Assembly (NCBI GenBank): GCA_000004695.1
Contig: CM000151.3
Coordinates: 160,001 to 224,000 of the forward strand
Origin: Dictyostelium discoideum
Taxonomy: Eukaryota
Length of the DNA: 64,000 nt
Direction: 5' to 3'
The translations under genes were made by a program, and so were the position numbers. This document shows positions 14,413-58,448 of the stretch, one piece after another. The notes under the pieces are model-generated. The model ran no database searches and was not told where the DNA came from. It saw only the letters and a list, made by a program, of their open reading frames with translations. Position 1 is the stretch's first letter. Each line of letters opens with the position of its first letter.

Positions 14413-16141
14413 TTATTTCTTTTGTTTTTTTTTCATTGGTTGAGAATCTTCTTTTGTTGATTTCTTTTCAGTTGATTTCTTATCAGTTGACTTTTTATCT
14501 GTTGATTTTTTATCTGTTGATTTTTTATCTGTTGATTTTTTATCTGTTGATTTATTATCAGTTGATTTTTTAGTTGTATCTTTTTTGTTATTATTATCAT
14601 TTGATTTTTTATCTGAATCTTTTTTATTTTTTTTTGATTTTTCATCAACATCTTGGAAAATTTCATCAACAACTTCCATATCATCTTCAACCTTTTTCTT
14701 TGGTTTACTTTTATTTTTATTATCAATTTTTGAATCTGTTGATTTATTTTTTCTATCTTGTTTTGATTGTTCAATTCTTTCAATGATTTCCTGTTTTGAT
14801 TTCTCTTTATTTGATTGTCTCTCTTTTTGTTGAGTTTCTTTCTTTTGTTGTTTTTCTAATTTCTTTTGTTTTTCAGATTCAAAGATTTCATTATTTTCCA
14901 AACCAAGTGATAAAAGAATCTTTTTGGAGGTATCTTTAATATTTTGTTTATTATTGAGTTTATAAAGACGACATAATGTTGATTCTAATAATTTACAAGA
15001 TTCTGAACCCAATTTATTTGATAAACTGGTACTATCACCACTATTTGATGATTTAATAATTTGTAAACATGAGAAAATAATTTGATTGATAATATTTAAA
15101 TGATCAAAAATTGAATTTGGTTTCAATTGTTTTTCTTTACCATTTAATGAATTACAAAGAGTAGTTAAAATATCGGAAGCATTATTTAAGAGATTCTTAC
15201 CACTTGTACCATAAGAATCTTTTCTCTTTACAATGGATGATAAAACATCTAAAATCTTCTTTGAATTATAATCATTTTGAGGTGATTCAATGATAGTTGT
15301 AACCTTTTTAATTGATGCCCAAATTACAGTTGGGAATCTTTGAGCAAACTCTGTAAAGAATCTTGATGGTACGATATTATTACGATCTAATAAACATTCA
15401 ATAATTGAATCTAATTTAGTTGAAAATAATTTAATATCTAATGAACCATATTCTGAAGGTGTTGGTTGTTCAACAACAACATTGTTGTTTGTAGTTGATT
15501 TAGTTGATTTAGTTGATTTCTTTGATGGAGTTTGTTGAACAGCAACAGTGGCAACTGGTGGTTTAATTGATAATAAAACTCTAACAATCATATAAATTGC
15601 ATGACCAGATAAAATATAAGCAGAGGAATTATTATTTTGTTGTTCTTTATCTTTTGAAGAACCAGTATGTTTTGAAGAGAGAATTGTATCGAATAAGGAT
15701 GATAATAATTGATTCAATTCTTGAACATTTACAGATTTATCAGTAGTTGTACGAATTTGTGAGAATTTATTCTTAAATAAACTAATGAAACGATTAGAGA
15801 TTGATGGTTCATCAAAGGAGGTTGCTTCAATCATTAATGGAATCATCTTAAAGATGTATTCATTTGGATTTGTAATGAATTTCTTTACATAAGATTCTAA
15901 TAAATCGATTAAACGTGATTTCAAATTAATAGTTTGAGTTTTAATATCTTGATAATTACTCTTCTTTTCTTTTTTACTCTTAAAAACTTCTTTCAAATAA
16001 TTATCCATCATTTTAGCTTCTTCTTCAGTTGGTTCAAGTAAATCTTCATCTTCATCATCTTCATCTAATAATAAATGTTTACCCATTGTTTGTTTTAATC
16101 TTGCAACTAATTCTGGATTAACTGAATTATCATCATCAGAA

Positions 16142-16176
<35 letters not shown>

Positions 16177-18123
16177 CTCTTCATCATCTTCTTCATCTTC
16201 ATCGTCTGAATTTTCTTTTGATTGTTTTAATTCTTCAGGTGAAATTGGTTTAAATTCATCATCATCTTCATTATCTTCGTCATCATCACCATTACCATCT
16301 AAACCATTAAATAATTCATCAGTTGGTGCTTTAATCATTGTAAGAATATGTTCGAGTACTTGGAAAGAGATATTATCAGCAAAGATTGAAAATATTTGTT
16401 TAATAATTGTACGTAAGATATGAATTGGTTTATCTAATAATGAGATTAAAACATCTAAAAGTACCATAAATGGTTGAGGTTTATCTTGTTCTGGTGCTGA
16501 TCTTTTTTTAGTTGTTGATTTTTGTGGTGGTTGTGGATTTGTTAATTCTTCAAAAGCAGATGTTAAATCTTCAATAATTTCAGAGATTTCTTGTGCATCA
16601 GTAAGATAATGTAATGAAACATGAACGAATAATAATTCAAAGCCAACCAATTGATTTAATCTTTTTTCAGCAGATTTTTGTTTTAATTGAATTGATTGAA
16701 CGATTTTCATAATTCTATCAATTGGTTTAATACCCATTGGTAAAAAGGTTGACAATTGTGGTCTATCTGAATCGGTTGAACCTTTTTTTAATAAATCGTA
16801 TTGGAAACTTGCCATTTTAGAAGCCCAGAATTCACCATTACTCATTGTACCTTCATATGATGTAGTTTGTTGTTTAGTTGATTCTAAAGTAAGGTATGAA
16901 AGTTCCTCTAAAACTGAACAAAATCTAATGAAACATTGATCTCTAATTGATTGAGAAATCTCTGATTTTGGTTTACTTGTGAATAATTCTTCTGTAAAAG
17001 TTTTAACTGGAGCAGCAACGACAGCAGCAGTAACTTTCTTTTTACCTTTAGTAACTGGAGTGGCGGTAGCAACGGCAGCAACTGGTTTTGATTCACATGT
17101 TAAATAATAAGAATGGAAATAAAGGAATTGTAATAATTCTAATAACATTGGCTCTAATTTAATTAAACTTTCAGTTGGACGTTTAACTAAATCTTTTGAA
17201 ATGTGACCGATTTGACTTAAAATCCAATGTCTAGATGAATCAATATATTTCTCTGATTTCTCTTCATTATTCATTTCATCAATTACCATATCATCTTCAT
17301 CTTCATTATTACTATTATTATTACTATTATCATTTGATGATGATGATGATGAAGAAACTACATTAATAAATAATTTATATAATGAATTTAAATAAATTTT
17401 AATTGAATCTTCATCTAAATCTTTAACTAATTCATTAATTACATCGACTGAAATTGATTGTTCGAATTTTTGTTTTTGTTGTTGTTGATTTTGTGGATTT
17501 TGGTTATGATGATGTGAATTATTTGAAAAGAATAAAATTAATGCTAAACGATGTTGTGATGAAATCTCTGCTGTTCTTGGAATTGATTGGAATGCTAATG
17601 AACCAACTTCATGTAATGGACTAGTTGGTTTTAATGATTCACTTAAATTTGCAATAACATTTTCACTAAAAATATCATTAATAATATCTGGATGTACTAA
17701 TGGTAATAACATTTCAAATAATTGTAATCCTAAATATCTCTTATTCATTGATGTTGTTTTAAATAAATTATCTTTTAAAAAAAAAAAAGAATTAATAAAT
17801 TTAATTATAAGAAAAAATAATAATAAATAAATAAATAAATAAAAAATTAACAAACTTACCTTCAACTATTAATTTCCAAAATTCTAATAATGTTGCATTT
17901 TCTTCATGATCAGCCAATAAAATTTCAAATGTAATTCTCCAAACTTTATGAATTCTTGGATGAGATTTACAAGATTCACTAAAAATATTTTTTAATAAAC
18001 TTAAATTTGAAATATTTAAAATACTTGGATGTTTCCAACCAACAGTTTGTTTAATTAAATTGAATTTCTAAAAAAATAAAAAAAAATAAAAAAAAGAATT
18101 AATAAATATTATTATTATTATTA

Positions 18124-30326: not shown

Positions 30327-31266
30327 ATGGATCACATTCTTAAAGATAATAATAATATTAATAAAAATAATAAAGATAATGAAATATTATTTTTTAAAGT
30401 TTTTAGAAACCATTTTATATTTAATGAAATATTTAAACATGTTAGGCTATATGATTTACATGAATCAAAAGCTTATAGTATAAATTTAAAGGATTCTAAA
30501 TATAAAGATTATATTAAATATATATTTGATTTTAATTTTTCAATTAAAAATCAAAATATTTTAACAAATTTTAAAGAATTAATTAAATTAAAATTTAATA
30601 AAGATTTTAATAAGAAATTAAAAGCAAATTCAATACCAAATACAATTAAAATAATTATATTTAATAAAAATTATAAACAACCTATTGATTTAGGTATTTT
30701 ACCATCAAGTTTAGAATATTTAAGTTTTCATAGTTTTTATAATGATTCAAATTTTACAATAACAAGAAATTTATTACCAAATTCAATAACAACATTAATA
30801 TTCGATAATGATGAGCATAATGGATATGATGCATATAGAAATGATAGTGGTTGTTTTATAGATTTAAACATTGGAGGGATTTTACCAAATTCATTAACAA
30901 AATTAAATTTACCAAATAATTTTAATACGAAATTAAATTTCAAATCATTACCAAATTCAATTACAAGTTTAAAATTTGGTCTTTATAACGAACCATTAGA
31001 AGACAATGTTTTACCTGATAATTTGGTTGAATTAACAATGGTTTGTTTTAATAGAGATTTCCACGAAAATACATTTACAAATTGTAAACAAATTAATAAA
31101 TTAATTTTATATAAATTTAATCAAAAAATAAGTGGTACGAATTTACTACCAAAAAGTTTAACACATTTAGAATTACTATTTTTTAACCAACCAATAATGG
31201 ATACTACAAATAATAGTTTATTACCAAATAATTTAAAATATTTAGATATTACATATTATAATATTG

Positions 31267-31324
<58 letters not shown>

Positions 31325-32051
31325 TAATAATGGTTCATTATTTTTACCAAATTCCATTGAAACTTTAATCATCAATAAAATAAATTTATTTCCATCATTT
31401 CCTAATTCATTAACTTCTTTAGCAATGTCATATGAAAACAAAGGTTATATTTTTAAATTATTAAGCCTTTTACAAGATATTAATTTAAACAAATGTGTTT
31501 TCATTAAATATAAGCAATATATATACCCAAATTCTAATTTGGTAAGTCTTGTTTTTCATCCATCTAAAATAATTATGGAAAAAGAAAAAGAAAATGAAAA
31601 TGAAAATGAAAATGATGAATTTTTCAACCAAAAAAATATTAAAATAGTAGAAATAAAACAAAAAAATTTTAATTGGTCAAATTTACTAGAATTTAGATAT
31701 TTAAAAGAACTAATATTTGATAAAAATTCAACTTTTAATAAAAATTTAATTAAAGGAATTTTACCAGATTCTTTAGAAAGATTGGAGTTTGGAAAACATT
31801 GGAATAATGGTGATAATAAAAATGAAATAAATTTTTATGGAAAAGAGCTTAAAGTTGGTATATTCCCAAATCAAATTAAGTTTTTAAAATTTGGTAAATT
31901 ATTCTATAAATCTATTAAATTAGAGGCATTACCAACATCTTTAATTAAACTTTGTTTACCAAAGAAATCATTACTTTTATTGCCTAAAAATTACATTTTA
32001 AAATTCAAAATATCTTTATTAAAAAAAAAAAATATATATATTAAATATTAA
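30327..32051 (+). CDS. FNIP-repeat-containing protein
   Basis: 574-aa single ORF with more than 10 tandem ~22-aa FNIP units (ILPSSLEYLSFHSFYND, LLPNSITTLIFDNDEHNG, ILPNSLTKLNLPNNFN, SLPNSITSLKFGLYNEPL, LLPKSLTHLELLFFNQPI, LLPNNLKYLDI...). It also has an (AAT)24 poly-Asn tract. FNIP repeats are a dictyostelid-specific family. Confidence 0.8.
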
Positions 32052-43650: not shown

Positions 43651-43788
43651 AAAACTTTTGTTGCAATTTATTTAAGAATAATAATTAAAAATAATTAAAT
43701 AAAAAATAAACTATTATACAATATATTCTTTAATTATAATTAATATCAAAATTAATACCACTCTTAATTTTTTTTTTTTAATCATTAT

Positions 43789-44634
43789 TTATTTTTTTCT
43801 CTTTATTACTGTTGTGAAATATGGATTATTAAAATTATTTATTTCTTGGATATGTTCATCATAATTATTTCTATCTCTTTTTTTAATTTTAATTTTAATT
43901 TTATTTTCTTTTAAATTCATATTATTTAATTTTTGTTGTTGTTGTTGTGTTGAAATATTATTTATTAAATTTTTAAATTCTTTTTCAAATTCACCTAATA
44001 AACTGAATGCATCAAATTCAAATATTAATGAGTATAATTGTAATTTAAAAATATTATTAAATATTAAATTAAATATGAATTTTAATTCGTTCGAATATTT
44101 GAAATTAATTTTATATTGTCTAATTGATGTTAATGGTGATGAAAATATATTAACAAATAAATATTGATTAATTGAAATATGTTCTTTATGTAATTCAACA
44201 CTACCCTTAATTTTTTTTGTTGAGTAAACAATAAAATCACTCTCACCATATAAATATAAATATTTAATTGATTTATTATTTAATAAATTTGAAAATGTAT
44301 TAATATTTAATAAACCCATACAATCAAATTTAATTCTTTCAATTGATGTATTTAATTCTGAAAATAATGGTTTGAAACAGTTTGAATATGATTCTATAAT
44401 TTCTTTTAATTTATTTGCAAAAATTAAAAGATCATCATCATCTTTAAAATAATCATAATAACGAGCATATGTTCCAAAATCAAATGGATAATGTTTAAAA
44501 TTTACTGATGATATTTTTAAATTCTTTAAAGATTTAATTGTAATCAATGAATTGATCATTTCATTTAATTCTGATTTCATATTTTTTGAAAAACCCACAT
44601 TTGCAAATTCTCTATAGAATCCATGAAATCCCAT
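43789..44634 (-). CDS. lineage-specific hypothetical protein, family copy 1 (281 aa)
   Basis: ORF MGFHGFYREFANVGFSKNMKSELNEMINSLITIKSLKNLKISSVNFKHYP...IKIKIKKRDRNNYDEHIQEINNFNNPYFTTVIKRKK. It is about 65% identical to the ORF at 47386..48234. In-frame stops lie immediately upstream of its ATG. Confidence 0.5.
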   Translation of the reverse strand: MGFHGFYREFANVGFSKNMKSELNEMINSLITIKSLKNLKISSVNFKHYPFDFGTYARYYDYFKDDDDLLIFANKLKEIIESYSNCFKPLFSELNTSIERIKFDCMGLLNINTFSNLLNNKSIKYLYLYGESDFIVYSTKKIKGSVELHKEHISINQYLFVNIFSSPLTSIRQYKINFKYSNELKFIFNLIFNNIFKLQLYSLIFEFDAFSLLGEFEKEFKNLINNISTQQQQQKLNNMNLKENKIKIKIKKRDRNNYDEHIQEINNFNNPYFTTVIKRKK

Positions 44635-45109
44635 TTCTTCAGATATGTTTGATACTATTAAAAGTGAATTAATTGGTATTGTAATTGAATGTAGATTTTT
44701 AAAATCTTAAAAATAAATAAAAAAAGTAAAAGGCCAGATATCTTAAAAATGATTAAAATGATTAAAAATTTTAAATAAATAATAAAAAATAAAAAACTTA
44801 ATATAATTAAAAACTTAAAAATTAATAAAAAAAAGTAAAATGATCAAAATCTTTAAAATTATAAAAAATATTAAAAATATAAAAATAAATAATAAAAATA
44901 AAATAATTAAAATAAAAATAATGACCCAAATGATTAAATTAGTTTTTTTGTCATTTTTTTAAAAATAAAAAAACTAAAACAAAAATTTCTTTTTTTTATT
45001 TTTTTCTTTTTTTTATTTTTTATAATTTTTTTTTTGGTCTGAAGAGCAAATAAAACGAATAAAAAAATTAATTTCTCTTTTTTATTTTTTTTTAGTGTTG
45101 GTGTGGATT

Positions 45110-45821
45110 ATTAATATTAATTAATTCTTGAAAATATCCATCATAATTTGTTTTAATTTTAATTTTAATTTTAATTTTAATTTTAATTTTAATTTTAATT
45201 TCTTTTAAATTTATGTTATTTGATTGTTGTTGATGTATTGAAATATTATTAATTAAATATTTAAATTCTTTTACAAATTCACTGATTAATTCGTATGCAT
45301 TGAATTCAAATATTAATGAATTTAATTGTAATTTAAAAAATTTTATTTAATATTTAATTAAATATGAATTTGAATTGTTTTGATTCTACAAAATTAATTT
45401 TATAATGTCTAATTGATGATAATGGTGATGAAAATATATTTTCAAATAAATATTGATTAATTGAAATAGGCTCTTGATGTAATCCCATATTATTTCCAAT
45501 TTTTATTGATGAGTAAACAATGAAATCACTTTGATATAAATATAAATATTTAATTGATTTATTATTTAATAAATTTGAAAATGTATTAATATATAATAAA
45601 CCCATACAATCAAACTCAATTCTTTCAATTGATGTATTTAAGTTTGTAGAAAAATTATTTTTCTAAAATATAATTTCAAACAACAACAATGAAAATTAAT
45701 TTTTTTTTTTTTAAAATTTTAAATATAAAGTTTAATTAAAAAAATTTTCTATTATAATAACAATAATAAAATATAAAAAATATATTAAGACATAAAGCCT
45801 ATTTTCTTTTCTTTCTTTGTC

Positions 45822-45880
<59 letters not shown>

Positions 45881-46760
45881 TTAATCCTTAAAAACTAAAA
45901 TTGATTTATTATCATTTTATATTATTGTAAAAATAAATGAATCCATGGAAGCAAAGTGAAAAATTTGAAATTCAAGATATGTTCCTTAAAAACAAAATCA
46001 AAAGGAATTGATAATATAGCTAATGAATTGCTACCAAAATTAATTAGATCTAATTAAATTAGTATAATTTAATTAATTTTATACTAATTAAAATACACTG
46101 TATATTTAATTTTATACAGTGTGTTTTAGTGTAAAAATTCACTCCACCCTTATACCATATAAAAAAAATATATATATTATTGAACTTAATTCTGAAAATA
46201 ATGTTTTAAAACAGTTTGGAAAGTATTCGGTAATTTCATTTAATTTGTTTGCAAAAATTACAAGATTATCATCATCTTAAAAATAATCATAATAACGAGC
46301 ATATGTTCCATACTCGAATGGATAATGTTTAAAATTTACTGATGATATTTTTAAATTCTTTAAAGATTTAGTTGTAATGAATAAATTGATCATTTCATTT
46401 AATTCTGATTTCATATTTTTTGAAAAACCTGAATCTGCAAATCTTCTATAGAATCCGATTTCTTCAGATATGTTTGATAATATTAAAAGTGAATTAATTG
46501 GTATTGTAACTGAATGTAAATTTTCAGATTAACTTTGACTATATGAAGTGGTTCAACAAACTCTTCATTACCATGAGTTTGACTTAAAACTTTAATCGAT
46601 TCAACTTGTTGACCTGAATTATGTGGATCATATAATGATGAATAATTGACATGTAATTGAGAGATCTCACCATCATCATCTTCATTAGACCCATCATAAT
46701 TTAAATTTTTACCTTTTAAAATTTGAATATCTTTACTGTTTCTCTATCTTCAAATAATGT
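45110..46760 (-). pseudogene. disrupted copy of the same family (copy 2), split by a ~0.55 kb insertion and carrying internal stops
   Basis: The C-terminal half (45110-45628, ...TSIERIEFDCMGLLYINTFSN...) and N-terminal half (46187-46520, ...EEIGFYRRFADSGFSKNMKSELNEMINLFITTKSLKNLKISSVNFKHYP...YYDYF* with a TAA where copy 1 has a sense codon) are separated by 45629-46186. That interval is non-homologous sequence containing a poly-T tract and short perfect palindromes. The upstream region 46530-46760 is homologous to 48300-48560 of copy 3. Confidence 0.5.
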
Positions 46761-47143
46761 ACCTCCAATAAAACCAGAAATTATTTTTTTTTTTTTTTTA
46801 TCAAAACTCTTCAAATAAAAAAAAAATGTATATAAAAAATATAACTAATAATTTACATTTATTTTTAGGATCAAATATAATTTAGTTTCTATTTTATTTT
46901 GTTTTATTTTTTTTTATTTTTTATATTTTATTTCTTTTTTTTTATTTTTTTAGTTTATATTAAATTTAAAAACCAAAATATATTTTTATTTTAAATTTAA
47001 TATTCTTATCTAAAAAAAATAAAAAAAAAAAAACAATAAAATAAAATAGAAACTAAAATATATTTGATCCTAAATCTAAAATAATAAAATTTTATTAATT
47101 AAATTTTATTATTTGTTTTTTTTTTAATTCAATAAACCGATAT

Positions 47144-47179
<36 letters not shown>

Positions 47180-47385
47180 CATATTAATCAACAAATATTG
47201 AAAAATAGTATTGAGTTTTTTCAATTAAATTGTAGAATTTATTATGTGTGACTAAAATTAGGGTTGAAAATTATCTGCCCTATATTAATGTGTTAAAAAA
47301 AATTTCTATTTATATCTTTTTTTTTTTTTTTTATTTTTATTTTTTTTTTTTTTTTTTCACTATTTATTTTTTTCTCTAATAATTA

Positions 47386-48557
47386 TTATTTTTCTATTTT
47401 CTTTATTATTGTTGTGAAATGTGGATTATTAATATTGTTTAATTCTTGAATATTTTCATCATAATTAATTTTATTTTCAGTTTGTTTAATTTTAATTTTA
47501 ATTTTAATTTCTTTTAAATTTAAGTCATTTGATTTTTGTTGTAGTAGTTGTTGTATTGAAATATTATTTATTAAATTTTTAAATTCTTTAGCAAATTCAC
47601 CAATTAATTCATTTTTATTGAATTCAAATATTAATGAATATAATTGTAATTTAAAAATATTATTAAATATTAAATTAAATATTAATTTTAATTCATTAGA
47701 TCCTTTGAATTTTATTTTATAATGTCTAATTGATGTTAATGGTGATGTAAATATATATTCAAATAAATATTGATTAATTGTAATAGGTTCTTGATTTAAT
47801 CCCATACTACGACTAACTAGTTTTGGACAGTAAACAATGAAATCACTATCACCATGTAAATATAAATATTTAATTGATTTATTATTTAATAAATTTGAAA
47901 ATGTATTGATATTTAATAAATCCATACAATCAAATTCAATTCTTTCAATTGATGTATTTAATTCTGAAAATAATGGTTTGAATGAATTTGATAAGTATTC
48001 TATAATTTCTATTACTCTTTTAGCAAAAATTACTATATCATTAAAAGAATATTGCCTATATGCAAAAAAACCCATATAATCTAATGGATAGTGTTCATAA
48101 GTTACTGATGATATTTTTAAATTCTTTAAAGATTTACTTGTAATGAATGAATTGGTCATTTGAAATACTTCTGATTTTGTGTTTCTCAAAAAACCTGAAT
48201 AGGAATTTACATTATAGAATCCTTTAAATCCCATTTCTTCAGATATGTTTGATAATATTAAAAGTGAGTTAATTGTTACCGTAATTGAATGTAAATTTTC
48301 AAATTGATAGACTTTAATTAAATGGAGTGGTTCAACAAAATCTTCCTCATTAATTTCATAAGTTTTACTTTGTACTTTAATAGATTCAACTTGTTGGCCT
48401 GAATTATTTGGATCAAATAATGCTGAATAATTAACACGTGATTGAGAGCAATCATCTTTGGACCCGTCAAAAAATATATTTTTACCTTTGAAAATTTTGA
48501 ATATCTTTACTGTTCCTTTATCATAATACTCCCAATATAACCATCAATTGATAAATT
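47386..48557 (-). CDS. lineage-specific hypothetical protein, family copy 3 (longer form; open frame extends upstream of the annotated Met)
   Basis: The listed ORF 47386..48234 (282 aa, MGFKGFYNVNSYSGFLRNTKSEVFQMTNSFITSKSLKNLKISSVTYEHYP...) is preceded, in the same frame and without a stop, by about 107 further codons (...WEYYDKGTVKIFKIFKGKNIFFDGSKDDCSQSRVNYSALFDPNNSGQQVESIKVQSKTYEINEEDFVEPLHLIKVYQFENLHSITVTINSLLILSNISEE) back to a TGA at about 48557. A second overlapping open frame continues 48509-49320 (...GETGNIGNIEGFSDDSILFTIHEYISNENWEIISNLFKILELNYDFWLPEGYSPDSEQEDDDEDDGTDKRCTELYFNNLSIDGYIGSIMIKEQ*), implying a frame discontinuity or an unrecognised intron. Confidence 0.45.
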
Positions 48558-49705
48558 ATTAAAATATAATTCAGTACATCTCTTATCAGTACCATCATCC
48601 TCATCATCATCTTCCTGTTCAGAATCTGGACTATAACCTTCAGGCAACCAAAAGTCATAATTTAATTCTAGTATTTTAAATAAATTTGATATGATTTCCC
48701 AATTTTCATTTGATATATATTCATGTATTGTAAATAAAATACTATCATCTGAAAACCCTTCAATATTACCAATATTACCAGTTTCACCATTAACTACAAT
48801 TCTATAATAAAGTAATTGATTTTTTTCAAATTTGTTTTTAATTTCTTTAAAATCATCAACTGTAATATTATCTAAAAATAAATTGAATTTAAAATAATCA
48901 TTGATTATTGATTCTTTGATTTTTATAATTGAAAACTCTTTATTAAAACTAATTTTATTTTGTTTTTCATTTTTATTTTTAAAAACTATTTTATTTTTGT
49001 CATATTGATTTTGATTATTATAATTTTCAATAAATGATTTATTATTATTATCATTATTAATTTTTAACCAATGTTCAAATAATTTATTATTTATAATATT
49101 ATTTGATATTGTTAATGAAATAAAATTATACCACTTTTTTGAAACTAATATATAATTTAATATTTCATTTCTATTTAAATAAAATTTATTAATATTATAT
49201 TGATTAATAGGATTGTTATTATTATTATTGTTTTTATTATTATTATTATTTGTTTTATTTTTTTTGCTGGTTAATAAATAATTGATTATAGATCAAAATC
49301 AATAATATCTTGAAACATTTTATTATTATTATCTGTTTTAATTTTTTTATTTGTTGACATTATTATTTGTTTAAATTATAAAGAGTGAGTCTGACCAATG
49401 AGTTTAAATCTTTTTTTTTTTTTTTATTCTTTTACCCCAAATTCTATTAAAAAAAAAAAAATTTATTTTGGCAAAAAAAAAAAAAAAAAAAAAAAAAAGT
49501 TGACAAAAAATGAAATTAGAATAAAAAACAAAATTAGCAGAAAAAAAAAAAATGTTTAAAAAACTTTTTTTTCTTTTTTTATTTCCAATCAACAAATATT
49601 GAAAAAATAGTACCCAATAGTAGCATTTATTTTCTGTGACTTACAAAAAAATGTGGGTTGAATGTCCCACATTTTTTTAAAAAAAGAAAAAATAAAAAGA
49701 AAATA

Positions 49706-49820
49706 AAAAGAAAAGAAAAGAAAAGAAAAGAAAAGAAAAGAAAAGAAAAGAAAAGAAAAGAAAAGAAAAGAAAAGAAAAGAAAAGAAAAGAAAAGAAAAC
49801 AAAAGAAAAGAAAAGAAAAG
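49706..49820. repeat. (AAAAG)n microsatellite, about 22 units
   Basis: A perfect aaaagaaaag... array with one G-to-C variant unit. Confidence 0.9.
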
Positions 49821-50374
49821 AAAAAAAATAATAATAAAAAAACTTTGTAAGTCTGACTTAATGAGAATATTTTATTTTTTTTATTTTTTTTATTTTATCA
49901 AGACTCTTTTAATAAAAAAAAAAAATTTCTCTAATGACAAAAAAAAAAAGAAATAAATAAATAATTATATATATAACATTTATAAAGGGGGCATTGGTCA
50001 TTTTTTTTTTTTTTTATTTTTTTTTTTTTTATTTTTTTTCCATCCAAAAAAAAAAAAAAAAAAAATAAAAAAAAACAAATTTTCAAAAAAAGATTTTTTA
50101 AAATATTTCTGGATTTCAAATCTATTTTTTTTCTATTTTCACAATTATAAAAAAAAAAAAAAATCATTCCAATTACATTCTTAAAATTAATAATTTTATT
50201 AAAATATTTGTTTTTTTGATTTTTAAATATTTCTTGATTTCAAATCTATTTTTTTTCTATTTTAATAAGTATAAAAACTTTAAATTTTTTTTTTTTTTTA
50301 TTATCAAATAATTAAAAACTAAAACAAAAACCTTAAACTAATATTATATATAATATTTTAACATTAATTGAAAA

Positions 50375-50411
50375 ATGCCTCTCGCTTTAACCTCAAGGTA
50401 AATAATATTGA

Positions 50412-50442
<31 letters not shown>

Positions 50443-51283
50443 TATAATTAATTTATTTTTTATCTATAGAAAATCATTAAAAGATAATGAAGAATCTTTA
50501 AAAACCAATTTAGCATCAATTGAAAAATCATTAGGCGAAGCATTTTCAATTGAATTTGATTTTGAAGATATTATTACCAAATGTAATGATTCATGGGTAA
50601 CTAATAGTTGTGGAAGTATCTTTTATAAAGATGTTGTTGGTAATCTTGCTAAGAATATGGTAAAAGTTGGTGCAGACCCATTAATTAAAGAAGCATTTTT
50701 AGCAGCTGTCCCAAATAAGAAATTCGTTTTTATTTGTGCTGATGAAAAGTTGGAATCATATTGGAAATATCAATTTGTGAATGGTGATTGTCAAATTTTA
50801 TTCCGTCCAAAGATTTGCAACACCAATGATGTAAACACATTCAAATTGGAAACAATAATTCCAACCCAAGGTGTGTATACTTTAATGACCCGTTTGAATA
50901 TTAAAACAAATGAACAAAAAATGAAGGATAATTTATCCGCTGTTAAAAAAGCATTAAAATCATCATCGGATTGGTCAATTGATGAATCATCATTAGAAAC
51001 TGTTTATCCAAAAGTTGCCGACGACTTGAAGAATAGTTTTGGTCACATCTTTGCTGGTATTGTTGAAAAGGTAGCTGCTAATCTCGCAAAACGTTGTGCT
51101 GATGAAATGATTTTGGAAGCAGTCCAAGAAGCAACTACAAATCATACAATCGTTATTAAACATGATGCAAACTTGAATGGTTATTGGTCATGGTCATTTG
51201 AATCTGGTAATATCGTTATCACTTTCAAATCTGTAACTAATACTAACGATGTTCAAACATTTGATTTCATTAAATTATTATAA
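50375..51283 (+). CDS. hypothetical protein composed of two tandem ~135-aa homologous domains
   Basis: Two-exon model join(50375..50397,50470..51283). ATG CCT CTC GCT TTA ACC TCA AG|GTAAAT donor, tatctatag acceptor, phase 2, joining the 291-aa ORF frame. Domain 1 (NEESLKTNLASIEKSLGEAFSIEFDFEDII...VNTFKLETII) and domain 2 (NEQKMKDNLSAVKKALKSSSDWSIDESSLE...VQTFDFIKLL) are clearly related. No known homology. Confidence 0.6.
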
Positions 51284-56837: not shown

Positions 56838-58448
56838 TTATTTAACTTTATTAGTTCTTTTTGTAACAGTTGATTTTTTAGTAGTTTCATTATCTTCATC
56901 AGATTCATCAGATTCTTCAGATTCAATAGTTGGTTTATCTTGAATTGAAACAGATTCTTTAGTGACTGAAGTATTGGTGGTGGTAGTTGAGGTTGAATTA
57001 TTATCATCATCAGATTTAACTTTTTTTGATGATGGTTTCTTTGAACGAGTGAAACAAAATACAATTGGTAAAAGTAAAGAAGAGAAACCAACTAAATAAA
57101 GTAATGGATTTTGATTTGCTTCAGATTGGAAGAGAGTTAAATAGAATTTAATAGTTTCAAAGATATCACCTTGAGATGGGTCGAGTTTTTTGGCATCTTC
57201 AGCGTTTTTGGCTGCTTGTCTTTCCTTTTGAATTGTATGTTTCTCTTTCCAATTCTCTTGTAATAATTGTTGAGCTTCTTCTTGAGAATGAGTGATAATG
57301 AAATTATCAAAGAGAATATCACGAGTATTTGACAAAACTTCAATACCGACTGCAATGATTGGCTCTACGATATATGGATTCTCAACGTTGAAATAGGATG
57401 GATTTGCAATTTGTCTTGGTTTCCATTCACCCTTGTACAATGGGTTTGCTACCATTGGTGCGGACCATTTACCCTTGTATAATGGGTTGGCGATGGTTGG
57501 GATGACCCACTCACCGCATTGGCCAGAGGCGCATTTTGGATTCTCAATTGATGGTGCTTCCCACTCGCCATCGTCTTCCTCATTCCATTCTGGTGGCTGT
57601 GTTTCTGATGGGTCGGAGATTAAGAATGGCTCGTTGTCTAACCAATCGGATGGTTTGACAGCTTGTGGATCGTTGATACGTAATGGTTGGTCTTCGTCCC
57701 AGTCGTCTGGTTTGGTGGCGCCTGGTTCGGGGATTTCAGCATCGTCGACCCAGTCGGATGGCTTGGAGTCGGTTGGGTCGTCAATCTCCTTTGGTGGGTT
57801 GAAGGCTGGTGTGAACGAGTCGTGGAATGAGCCGTCCAAGACTGACTCGTCGTCGACCTTGATGGTGAAGGTGTTGTCTGGTCTGATGATCAAGGTGTAG
57901 ATATGCGACACTCTGTCTTTTCTAACCGATGGTTTTGCAGTGATCAATTTCTCTTCGTGTACATTTGTGATTGGGTTACGATGACGAACGATGAAATGAA
58001 TTCTGTCATTGCTTCCGCAAACGTCGGCGCCAAACATGATGCTGTATGGGGTGTTTGAGTCGACAGTTTCCACATTGAAATCTTCACGATCTGTGTACAA
58101 TTTAATGTAACCACCTGAACATGTTACACCCTCTTGGAATTGTAACTCATATTGAACTATTAATTCTTTATTGGTGTTATCAATTGCGTGACTTAATTGA
58201 TAGGTGATTGCATATCTTTTACCTGCTTGGGTTAATACTAAACCATTATCATTCTCATCGATTGGATCATTGGCTGCTTTAAATCCAATAACTCCACTAT
58301 ATTCTTGATTACTTGATTTAATCCATTTTGATGAACTTTTACCTAAATCTTGAAAATCTTCAAAAAATAATGTATCTTTACTTGGATTAAATGAAACACA
58401 AACTCCAATTATAATTGATAAAATTAATAATAAAATTAATTTATTCAT
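56838..58448 (-). CDS. cnxA: calnexin (ER lectin chaperone)
   Basis: 536-aa single ORF. Signal peptide MNKLILLLILSIIIGVCVSF. Lectin domain with CGGGYIKLYTD and IMFGADVCGSNDRIHFIVRH. Four P-domain repeats (KPSDWVDDAEIPEPGATKPDDWDEDQP..., KPSDWLDNEP..., PPEWNEEDDGEWEAP..., ANPLYKGKWSAPMVANPLYKGEWKPRQIANPSYF). TM helix LLYLVGFSSLLLPIVFCFT followed by an acidic/Ser-rich cytoplasmic tail, which makes it calnexin rather than calreticulin. Confidence 0.9.
   Translation of the reverse strand: MNKLILLLILSIIIGVCVSFNPSKDTLFFEDFQDLGKSSSKWIKSSNQEYSGVIGFKAANDPIDENDNGLVLTQAGKRYAITYQLSHAIDNTNKELIVQYELQFQEGVTCSGGYIKLYTDREDFNVETVDSNTPYSIMFGADVCGSNDRIHFIVRHRNPITNVHEEKLITAKPSVRKDRVSHIYTLIIRPDNTFTIKVDDESVLDGSFHDSFTPAFNPPKEIDDPTDSKPSDWVDDAEIPEPGATKPDDWDEDQPLRINDPQAVKPSDWLDNEPFLISDPSETQPPEWNEEDDGEWEAPSIENPKCASGQCGEWVIPTIANPLYKGKWSAPMVANPLYKGEWKPRQIANPSYFNVENPYIVEPIIAVGIEVLSNTRDILFDNFIITHSQEEAQQLLQENWKEKHTIQKERQAAKNAEDAKKLDPSQGDIFETIKFYLTLFQSEANQNPLLYLVGFSSLLLPIVFCFTRSKKPSSKKVKSDDDNNSTSTTTTNTSVTKESVSIQDKPTIESEESDESDEDNETTKKSTVTKRTNKVK

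Follow-up and report, generated by a model that had tools for sequence, protein, structure and literature searches.

Three decayed copies of a probable F-box/leucine-rich-repeat gene family in a tandem array on Dictyostelium discoideum chromosome 2

Introduction

Substrate receptors of the FBXL class in SCF (Skp1-Cul1-F-box) ubiquitin ligases, such as human SKP2 and FBXL3, are built from an N-terminal three-helix F-box motif followed by a solenoid of leucine-rich repeats (LRRs). Here we describe three copies of a gene of similar design in a 64-kb stretch of chromosome 2 of Dictyostelium discoideum AX4 (GCA_000004695.1, contig CM000151.3, positions 160,001 to 224,000; the whole stretch is called the window below, and positions count from its first letter). 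The copies are very probably duplicative relics of a Dictyostelium-specific family of F-box/LRR SCF receptors. Intact members resemble the FBXL receptors in having an N-terminal F-box-like three-helix motif and then an LRR solenoid, and paralogues co-purify with Skp1 (PMC9485057). They differ in an Asn/Lys-rich loop of 15-30 amino acids (aa) between F-box helices 1 and 2, in an F-box that scores under the Pfam thresholds and in LRRs that Pfam does not see. An HMMER search found no family orthologues outside D. discoideum and its closest relatives, and in the window copies the F-box is absent or disrupted.

Plants and nematodes carry lineage-specific tandem F-box families that evolve by birth and death, of which the 2006 study by Thomas is said to give an example. 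The family described here shares with them tandem clusters, many pseudogenes and truncated copies, membership that differs between lineages, and a high ratio of non-synonymous to synonymous substitution rates (dN/dS) that is focused in the putative substrate-binding domain while the F-box is more conserved. It differs in belonging to an amoebozoan lineage and in a C-terminal domain that is not of the FBA, FTH or DUF type.

The Dictyostelium FNIP-repeat and 'LRR+' Skp1 interactors (PMC9485057) are likewise Dictyostelium-specific F-box candidates with inter-helix loops and LRR-like receptor domains, but no copy or paralogue studied here matches the FNIP model (PF05725), which makes this a distinct sequence family. 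Structurally, the predicted C-terminal solenoid is matched best by the LRRs of NLR proteins (NLRC4, NLRP3, NLRP9) and by ribonuclease-inhibitor-like LRRs. Unlike NLR proteins, the family lacks NACHT and NB-ARC domains, and TM-scores of 0.2-0.35 at 8-11% sequence identity indicate a likeness of fold class, not homology.

In the model that we favour, intact members would act as SCF substrate receptors whose F-box docks on Skp1 and whose LRR loops pick the targets. Copy 3 would be a full-length gene inactivated recently by deletions of 10 and 7 nucleotides (nt), copy 2 an old 5'-truncated pseudogene with frameshifts, a stop codon and a 544-bp insertion, and copy 1 what a 5' deletion has left of a gene whose counterpart at this position in a sister lineage has stayed intact. 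The truncations may have arisen by unequal recombination or deletion within the tandem array.

Results

Three same-strand copies of one gene

Stop-to-stop translation and self-BLASTN resolved the interval 43.8-49.4 kb, on the minus strand of a window of ~20% G+C, into three paralogous copies of a gene of ~640-670 aa (Table 1). An earlier reading of the bare sequence, referred to here as the first-pass annotation, had placed three same-strand copies at essentially these coordinates and had described a conserved block with a (KI)n tail; comparison of the array with itself recovers all three, and block and tail are seen in their translations. Alignments between copies extend over 340-960 nt at 76-89% DNA identity with E-values from 0 to 1e-121, far beyond chance. 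Copy 3 matches copy 1 at 83% over 957 nt (47358-48303 against 43759-44703), and it matches copy 2 at 81% (47295-47961 against 44978-45641) and at 76% (47958-48549 against 46186-46782), the latter corresponding to a homology reported earlier between 46530-46760 and 48300-48560. Copy 2 in turn matches copy 1 at 89% (46186-46524 against 44352-44699). The best matches of the locus in the protein collection are D. discoideum AX4 chromosome 2 proteins, DDB_G0271392 and DDB_G0271390, which are the annotated forms of copies 3 and 1. With ten family members as tblastn queries we found no fourth copy in the 64-kb window.

The homology continues past the stop codon into a 3' flank common to the copies (47295-47388 matches 44978-45094). 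Tandem copies on the same strand, with a shared flank and with disabling lesions relative to intact relatives, have the characters of unprocessed (duplicative) pseudogenes. They do not look like processed (retrotransposed) pseudogenes, since the copies are tandem and adjacent and the homology runs into a 3' flank that is not poly(A). The absence of introns is uninformative on retrotransposition, the parent genes being intronless.

Table 1. Features of the array in window coordinates
Feature	Position	Strand	Evidence
Copy 3, annotated as DDB_G0271392	47389-49360	-	Full-length; tblastn with intact paralogue and multiple DNA alignment
10-nt deletion in copy 3 (lesion 1)	49293-49294	-	DNA alignment with orthologue and three paralogues
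7-nt deletion in copy 3 (lesion 2)	48527-48528	-	DNA alignment; overlap point of two frames
F-box-like helices 2-3 of copy 3, NEILNYILVSKKWYNFISLTIS	49104-49169	-	Sub-threshold Pfam F-box matches in consensus and paralogues; alignment in PMC9485057 Fig. S3
44-nt GT..AG 'intron' of the DDB_G0271392 model	48486-48529	-	Exact mapping; spans lesion 2 and cuts ETVKIFKIFKG codons conserved in every intact relative
500-nt GT..AG 'intron' of the DDB_G0271392 model	49145-49644	-	Exact mapping; skips family start codon, F-box helix 1 and lesion 1
Exon 1 of the DDB_G0271392 model, MWDIQPTFF, from unrelated ATG at 49672	49645-49672	-	No counterpart in any paralogue
Copy 2, 5'-truncated pseudogene	~44978-46782	-	Parent aa ~277-633 and ~115 nt of shared 3' flank; tblastn, self-BLASTN
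544-bp AT-rich non-coding insertion in copy 2	45642-46185	-	Self-BLASTN; precise split of codons PLFSEL|NTSIERI
Copy 1, annotated as DDB_G0271390	43792-44706	-	Parent aa ~349-637 only (C-terminal LRR half); tblastn
AT-rich 109-bp tandem duplication	44699-44915	.	Occupies the place of the 5' 1.08 kb that copy 1 has lost; homology ends upstream of 44706

Copy 3 carries two frame-shifting deletions

Copy 3 has its ATG at 49358-49360 and its stop codon at 47386-47388. The intact paralogue DDB_G0271408 (P0008) aligns to it by tblastn in three different frames, with paralogue residues 1-24, 53-272 and 278-641. The first-pass annotation had seen a longer copy with an overlapping frame; the open frames 49292-48510 (261 codons) and 48543-47389 (385 codons) do overlap, but there are two frame breaks and not one, and the true ATG at 49360 lies in a third frame. 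The first break falls within the codons of F-box helix 1 (DFEILKSII): the missing bases read AAATTTTAAR in all four relatives aligned, and their loss shifts the frame to a TAA two codons on. The bases missing at the second break read ACGGATT in the orthologue, and the frame shifts again.

The database protein of DDB_G0271392 (580 aa, UniProt Q55BB4, P0001) maps exactly onto the window with the two introns and the first exon listed in Table 1. The mean length of Dictyostelium introns is 142 nt (PMC3946582). Because the 44-nt stretch codes for residues that are conserved in intact relatives, and is only about one third of that mean, the model is best read as a patch over a pseudogene. DDB_G0271392 is almost certainly a pseudogene, whose 580-aa model would result from a gene finder bridging the lesions with introns. 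An (AAAAG)n microsatellite of ~30 units (49682-49828) lies directly upstream of copy 3, beside the spurious exon 1.

Copy 1 is a 5'-truncated remnant

Copy 1 keeps the C-terminal 45% of the gene and has no F-box. It had been described as an intact short copy with a Met start. An ATG-initiated open reading frame (ORF) is present at 43789-44634 (281 aa), but the frame stays open for 24 more homologous codons upstream to 44706, giving 305 codons in all, and the 'start' is a conserved internal Met of the family (...SEEMGF...). DDB_G0271390 is annotated with a length of 263 aa, and with 281 aa in a second assembly. Judged from its sequence, DDB_G0271390 is a gene fragment.

Copy 2 is broken by frameshifts, a stop codon and an insertion

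The premature TAA (46277-46279) and the insertion of 0.55 kb that had been noted in copy 2 are both present, and tblastn adds at least three frameshifts to that description, with frame changes near 46722-46734, 46525-46531 and 45336-45337. Copy 2 is thereby broken into at least five frame segments. No gene model for it was found in the protein collection searched, and none was called in the second assembly, GCA_054883475.1.

The insertion contains an A-run of 57-77 nt and a 16-nt hairpin at 46089-46128, and is flanked by TTAA on both sides in AX4; in the second assembly the flanks are TTAA..TAA and the A-run is shorter. Terminal inverted repeats and an ORF are both lacking, and no second copy was found in the window or in four related loci. 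A TTAA-targeting piggyBac-like transposon is unsupported, given the lack of terminal inverted repeats, the differing flanks in the second assembly and the lack of another copy in the window and the four loci.

The two parts of copy 2 differ in their identity to copy 1, the 3' part being 83% identical (45078-45641 against 43792-44355) and the 5' part 89% (46186-46524 against 44352-44699). This mosaic suggests gene conversion or a chimeric origin.

An intact orthologue of copy 1 in a divergent lineage

In GCA_054859355.1, a divergent lineage labelled D. discoideum, the flanks are ~90% identical to the window. At the position of copy 1 stands an intact gene of 670 aa (P0004), upstream of the same 804/863-aa gene and of two ABC transporter genes. 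Its DNA is 89% identical to copy 1, the same level as the flanks, and in AX4 nothing upstream of copy 1 corresponds to the 5' 1.08 kb of P0004. Synonymous divergence between P0004 and copy 1 (dS = 0.11) is on a par with that of calnexin, a neighbouring gene (dS = 0.10), in support of orthology. The ancestral length of about 650 aa that had been proposed agrees with the 670 aa of this positional orthologue and with intact paralogues of 617-670 aa.

The orthologue of copy 3 in the same assembly (L003 9977-12066) has neither of the AX4 deletions but is spread over three frames by two breaks of its own, at other positions than in AX4, and is annotated as two proteins of 390 and 248 aa; three more family members follow on the opposite strand. 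Its frame breaks reflect either independent pseudogenisation or long-read indel errors. The interval therefore appears to gain, lose and inactivate members independently across lineages, with indel errors in the other assembly as a possible contribution. A dS of 1.4 for the C-terminus of copy 3 against the annotated coding sequence of P0088 was discarded, as the P0088 model changes frame.

Intact members combine an F-box-like motif with a predicted LRR solenoid

Intact paralogues are single-exon genes of 617-670 aa that start with MSTNKKIKTDNNNKIFQDIIDFEILKSIINYLL. Their F-box-like N-terminal motif consists of helix 1, QDIIDFEILKSIINYLL, the 15-30 aa Asn/Lys-rich loop, and helices 2-3, NEILNYILVSKKWYNFIS. 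Written as a bipartite pattern it is (L/F)(P/Q)D(Y/I)(L/I)DFEILKxIINYLL, the Asn/Lys loop, and NEIL/INYxLVSKKW(Y/F)NFIS, with a canonical 'LP' at the start of helix 1 in distant members (D. dimigraforme, D. citrinum, D. purpureum).

Seven paralogues (DDB_G0271408, DDB_G0271404, DDB_G0347826, DDB_G0271202, DDB_G0271228, DDB_G0271418 and DDB_G0271434) are Skp1 co-immunoprecipitation interactors, recovered with two antibodies and at two stages, in vegetative and/or slug cells (Boland et al, 2022, PMC9485057, Fig. S3). For each of the seven the same figure gives a predicted F-box with a helix 1-2 loop; it aligns this very motif as the F-box 'with loops between helices' and marks five of the seven as 'LRR+'. 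The F-box identity rests better on that work than on the scores of our own analysis, in which the Pfam F-box (PF00646/PF12937) is the top but sub-threshold match in the consensus, the paralogues and diverged relatives (12-19 bits against 20.5/24.3, E = 0.001-0.27). The D. purpureum relative scores 19.3 bits at the homologous motif. An N-terminal profile searched against PDB sequences returned the Skp2 F-box as its sole match (E = 0.57), and hhalign against seven classical F-boxes gave P = 1.1e-4, which is a lead and not a proof.

None of the window copies has an intact F-box: copies 1 and 2 begin at parent residues ~349 and ~277, and helix 1 of copy 3 is hit by the 10-nt deletion. The Skp1 interactors in the supplement of PMC9485057 include neither DDB_G0271390 nor DDB_G0271392, which is weak negative evidence that fits copies without a usable F-box.

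No Pfam LRR family matched the copies or five paralogues at E <= 1 or 10. The FNIP model also failed to match any copy or paralogue; as positive control, an ORF at 30327-32051 (+) gave E = 2.7e-44. This control is itself a neighbour of the array, 12 kb away, with 574 aa and seven FNIP repeats; FNIP is another LRR-like family typical of Dictyostelium, often found with F-boxes. An AlphaFold2 model of P0008, built with 40 paralogues in the alignment, has a predicted template-modelling score (pTM) of 0.66 and alternates strand and helix over residues 150-642. Block values of the predicted local distance difference test (pLDDT) over the C-terminal 490 residues are mostly 70-94, and fall to 33-60 in variable loops. 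Foldseek against the PDB returned only LRR proteins at E <= 1e-3, namely NLRC4 and NLRP3/9/2, then SKP2, FBXL3 and Rna1p, with E = 1e-6 to 1e-4 for the NLR LRR domains. The C-terminal ~490 aa are thus predicted, from this model, to form a ribonuclease-inhibitor-like LRR solenoid with hypervariable loops.

Weighing the reading and its alternatives

Several observations weigh against regarding the copies as relics of an SCF-receptor family. In a Pfam scan the copies and five paralogues show nothing over threshold, with neither an F-box nor an LRR model at gathering score, and the N-terminal 150 residues of the P0008 model have low confidence (pLDDT < 50). The Skp1 association belongs to paralogues and not to the window copies, and co-immunoprecipitation proves neither direct binding nor a function as ligase. 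It is conceivable that the introns annotated in DDB_G0271392 are real. The indels of copy 1 relative to its orthologue are all in-frame, a neutral simulation gives a probability of 0.06 for the absence of a stop codon, and dN/dS between the two is 0.60; these data would also suit a copy 1 that still makes a functional protein without F-box and is not a dead relic. All dN/dS values in this study are rough Nei-Gojobori estimates from few synonymous sites in a genome of ~20% G+C.

The first alternative is that the annotated genes work as annotated, with DDB_G0271392 spliced round its lesions and copy 1 making an LRR protein that lacks the F-box and might, for example, compete with its full-length relatives for their substrates or serve as a decoy. 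We consider this unlikely. Both model introns have GT..AG ends, but the 44-nt one would be unusually short and would remove conserved codons, the 500-nt one would give up the conserved start and helix 1 for nine codons without homologue, and the intact paralogues are single-exon. The absence of both gene IDs from the published Skp1 interactors points the same way. Long frames do persist in copies 3 and 1 where random frames close fast, and the low dN/dS of copy 3 against its orthologue (0.32-0.38), together with the values for copy 1, argues that constraint acted on both copies for most of their history after the lineage split, so that inactivation would be recent or, for copy 1, possibly incomplete. 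Recent inactivation, however, explains the low dN/dS and the open frames equally well.

A second alternative accepts the LRR family and denies it a role as SCF receptor: the motif at the N-terminus would then be a chance likeness and the Skp1 co-purification indirect. The F-box scores, all under curated thresholds, the poorly predicted N-terminus and structural matches that are led by NLR-type LRRs rather than FBXL proteins would agree with it. We nevertheless judge it quite improbable, as independent searches return the F-box as top or sole match, each time at one and the same motif and in members as distant as 40% identity, some of the divergent ones with the canonical 'LP'. FBXL proteins classically carry such a motif at the N-terminus, before the LRR domain, and the Foldseek matches include SKP2 and FBXL3. 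Seven paralogues were also found in Skp1 immunoprecipitates (PMC9485057).

The first-pass annotation had itself named misassembly, and fragments of one multi-exon gene, as ways in which it could be wrong. AT-rich sequence with long homopolymers and repeats 76-89% alike is error-prone, and copy number, truncations or frame breaks could in principle be artefacts of assembly or sequencing; this is very unlikely. An independent assembly, GCA_054883475.1, holds the region on a 3.6-Mb contig at 99.3-99.4% identity, with the same three copies, truncations and insertion. It has zero differences to the window over 47300-49987, which includes both copy 3 deletions. The few differences elsewhere are scattered single bases, homopolymer lengths and a pair of short indels, of which one, a single base, sits at the insertion edge (45641); all lie outside the lesions and the copy 3 coding sequence. 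A divergence of 11-24% between the copies also sets them apart from collapsed or duplicated reads of one sequence. That all three blocks belong, as exons or fragments, to a single larger gene with several exons is hardly conceivable: they share a strand and are closely spaced, and gene finders elsewhere do fuse such neighbours (P0002 and P0003, 1013-1071 aa), but by tblastn they align to overlapping parts of a 642-aa parent (aa 349-637, 277-633 and 1-641), and each has its own stop codon and 3' flank.

A Dictyostelium family with variable membership and near-unity dN/dS

We return to the reading of the copies as relics of an F-box/LRR receptor family. Exhaustive HMMER profile searching of 1.84 billion representative proteins gave 56 matches only, and all named ones are from Dictyostelium: D. 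discoideum, cf. discoideum, dimigraforme, citrinum and firmibasis, with one D. purpureum protein that matches in the N-terminal motif only. This bears out the earlier view of the family as lineage-specific, and the window copies are indeed in differing states of decay. One assembly holds at least 41 distinct members (<90% identical), and for AX4 we counted ~16 family gene IDs over the searches and PMC9485057. The nearest other members found in the AX4-like assembly lie ~58 kb past the right end of the window.

Annotation of the family elsewhere is uneven. Models P0002 (1071 aa) and P0003 (1013 aa) of other assemblies are read-through fusions of two tandem family members, and P0085 (896 aa), from another D. 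discoideum assembly, joins a DNA_pol_phi domain to a family C-terminus. This fusion means that a family copy adjoins the pol-phi gene in that strain; the AX4 pol-phi gene, at 14413-17865 in the window, has no family neighbour.

Between paralogues dN/dS is 0.84-0.94. A comparison of four intact genes gives 0.87-1.14 over the whole length, with 0.94-1.67 for the LRR-region loops and 0.46-0.79 for the first 149 residues. The loops were defined by structure, as classes set by variability would be circular. By the same method calnexin, compared with the divergent lineage, gives 0.08. Amino-acid variability is limited to discrete patches between near-invariant blocks. About 8.5% of random substitutions create stops in this genome and intact members nevertheless keep frames of 640-670 codons open, so the near-unity dN/dS is not plain neutrality; it likely reflects a mixture of constraint on the scaffold and diversification of the loops.

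A further reading would make the family a rapidly diversifying SCF-receptor repertoire whose LRR loops are under positive selection, for example in tracking variable targets in social conflict, symbionts or pathogens, and would liken it to the F-box expansions of nematodes and plants. The window would then record the turnover of this repertoire, and copy 1 could persist as an F-box-less competitor of the full-length receptors. The long frames kept open at a near-unity dN/dS, the contrast in dN/dS between loops and F-box region, the patchy variability, a member set that depends strongly on the assembly and the persistence of the copy 1 ORF are in line with this reading, which is speculative and, taken as a whole, doubtful.

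Relation to existing annotation

The F-box/LRR kind of gene and the birth-and-death mode of tandem arrays are well known, and members of the family had been annotated before. The first-pass annotation had suspected a family of the often undescribed sort. We found no family-level description in main texts by gene ID or keyword, nor in the interactome paper, and the family gene IDs had no match in main texts and are present only in the supplement of PMC9485057. Two of the three copies do, however, have gene IDs, and the seven paralogues had been published as Skp1-interacting F-box/LRR candidates. Neither a note of DDB_G0271392 as a patched pseudogene nor a gene model for 44978-46782 was found in the protein collection or in one second assembly.

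For curation, the array comprises one wrong database model (DDB_G0271392), one gene fragment (DDB_G0271390) and one unmodelled pseudogene. The window copies themselves, as relics, tell little about function, and the results are at the level of curation. The family has no Pfam model, and a profile from its alignment would annotate dozens of Dictyostelium 'hypothetical proteins'. As a compact set of Dictyostelium-specific, Skp1-associated F-box/LRR candidates with near-neutral dN/dS, hypervariable loops and strain-variable content, it is a candidate for studying SCF-receptor diversification in a social amoeba.

Other features of the window

Scans of the whole window for tRNA genes and Rfam families found nothing. 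Adjoining the array, an ORF at 50408-51283 (+), which Pfam does not match, contains two internal repeats of ~135 aa; its synteny holds in both other assemblies, where the models have 278 aa. A calnexin/calreticulin ORF of 536 aa lies at 56838-58448 (-), with a P-domain rich in Pro, Asp and Trp. At 57.4-58.1 kb the window reaches 45-59% G+C, its sole GC-rich stretch; a mobile element was considered for this peak at 57-58 kb and rejected, as the peak is the calnexin P-domain.

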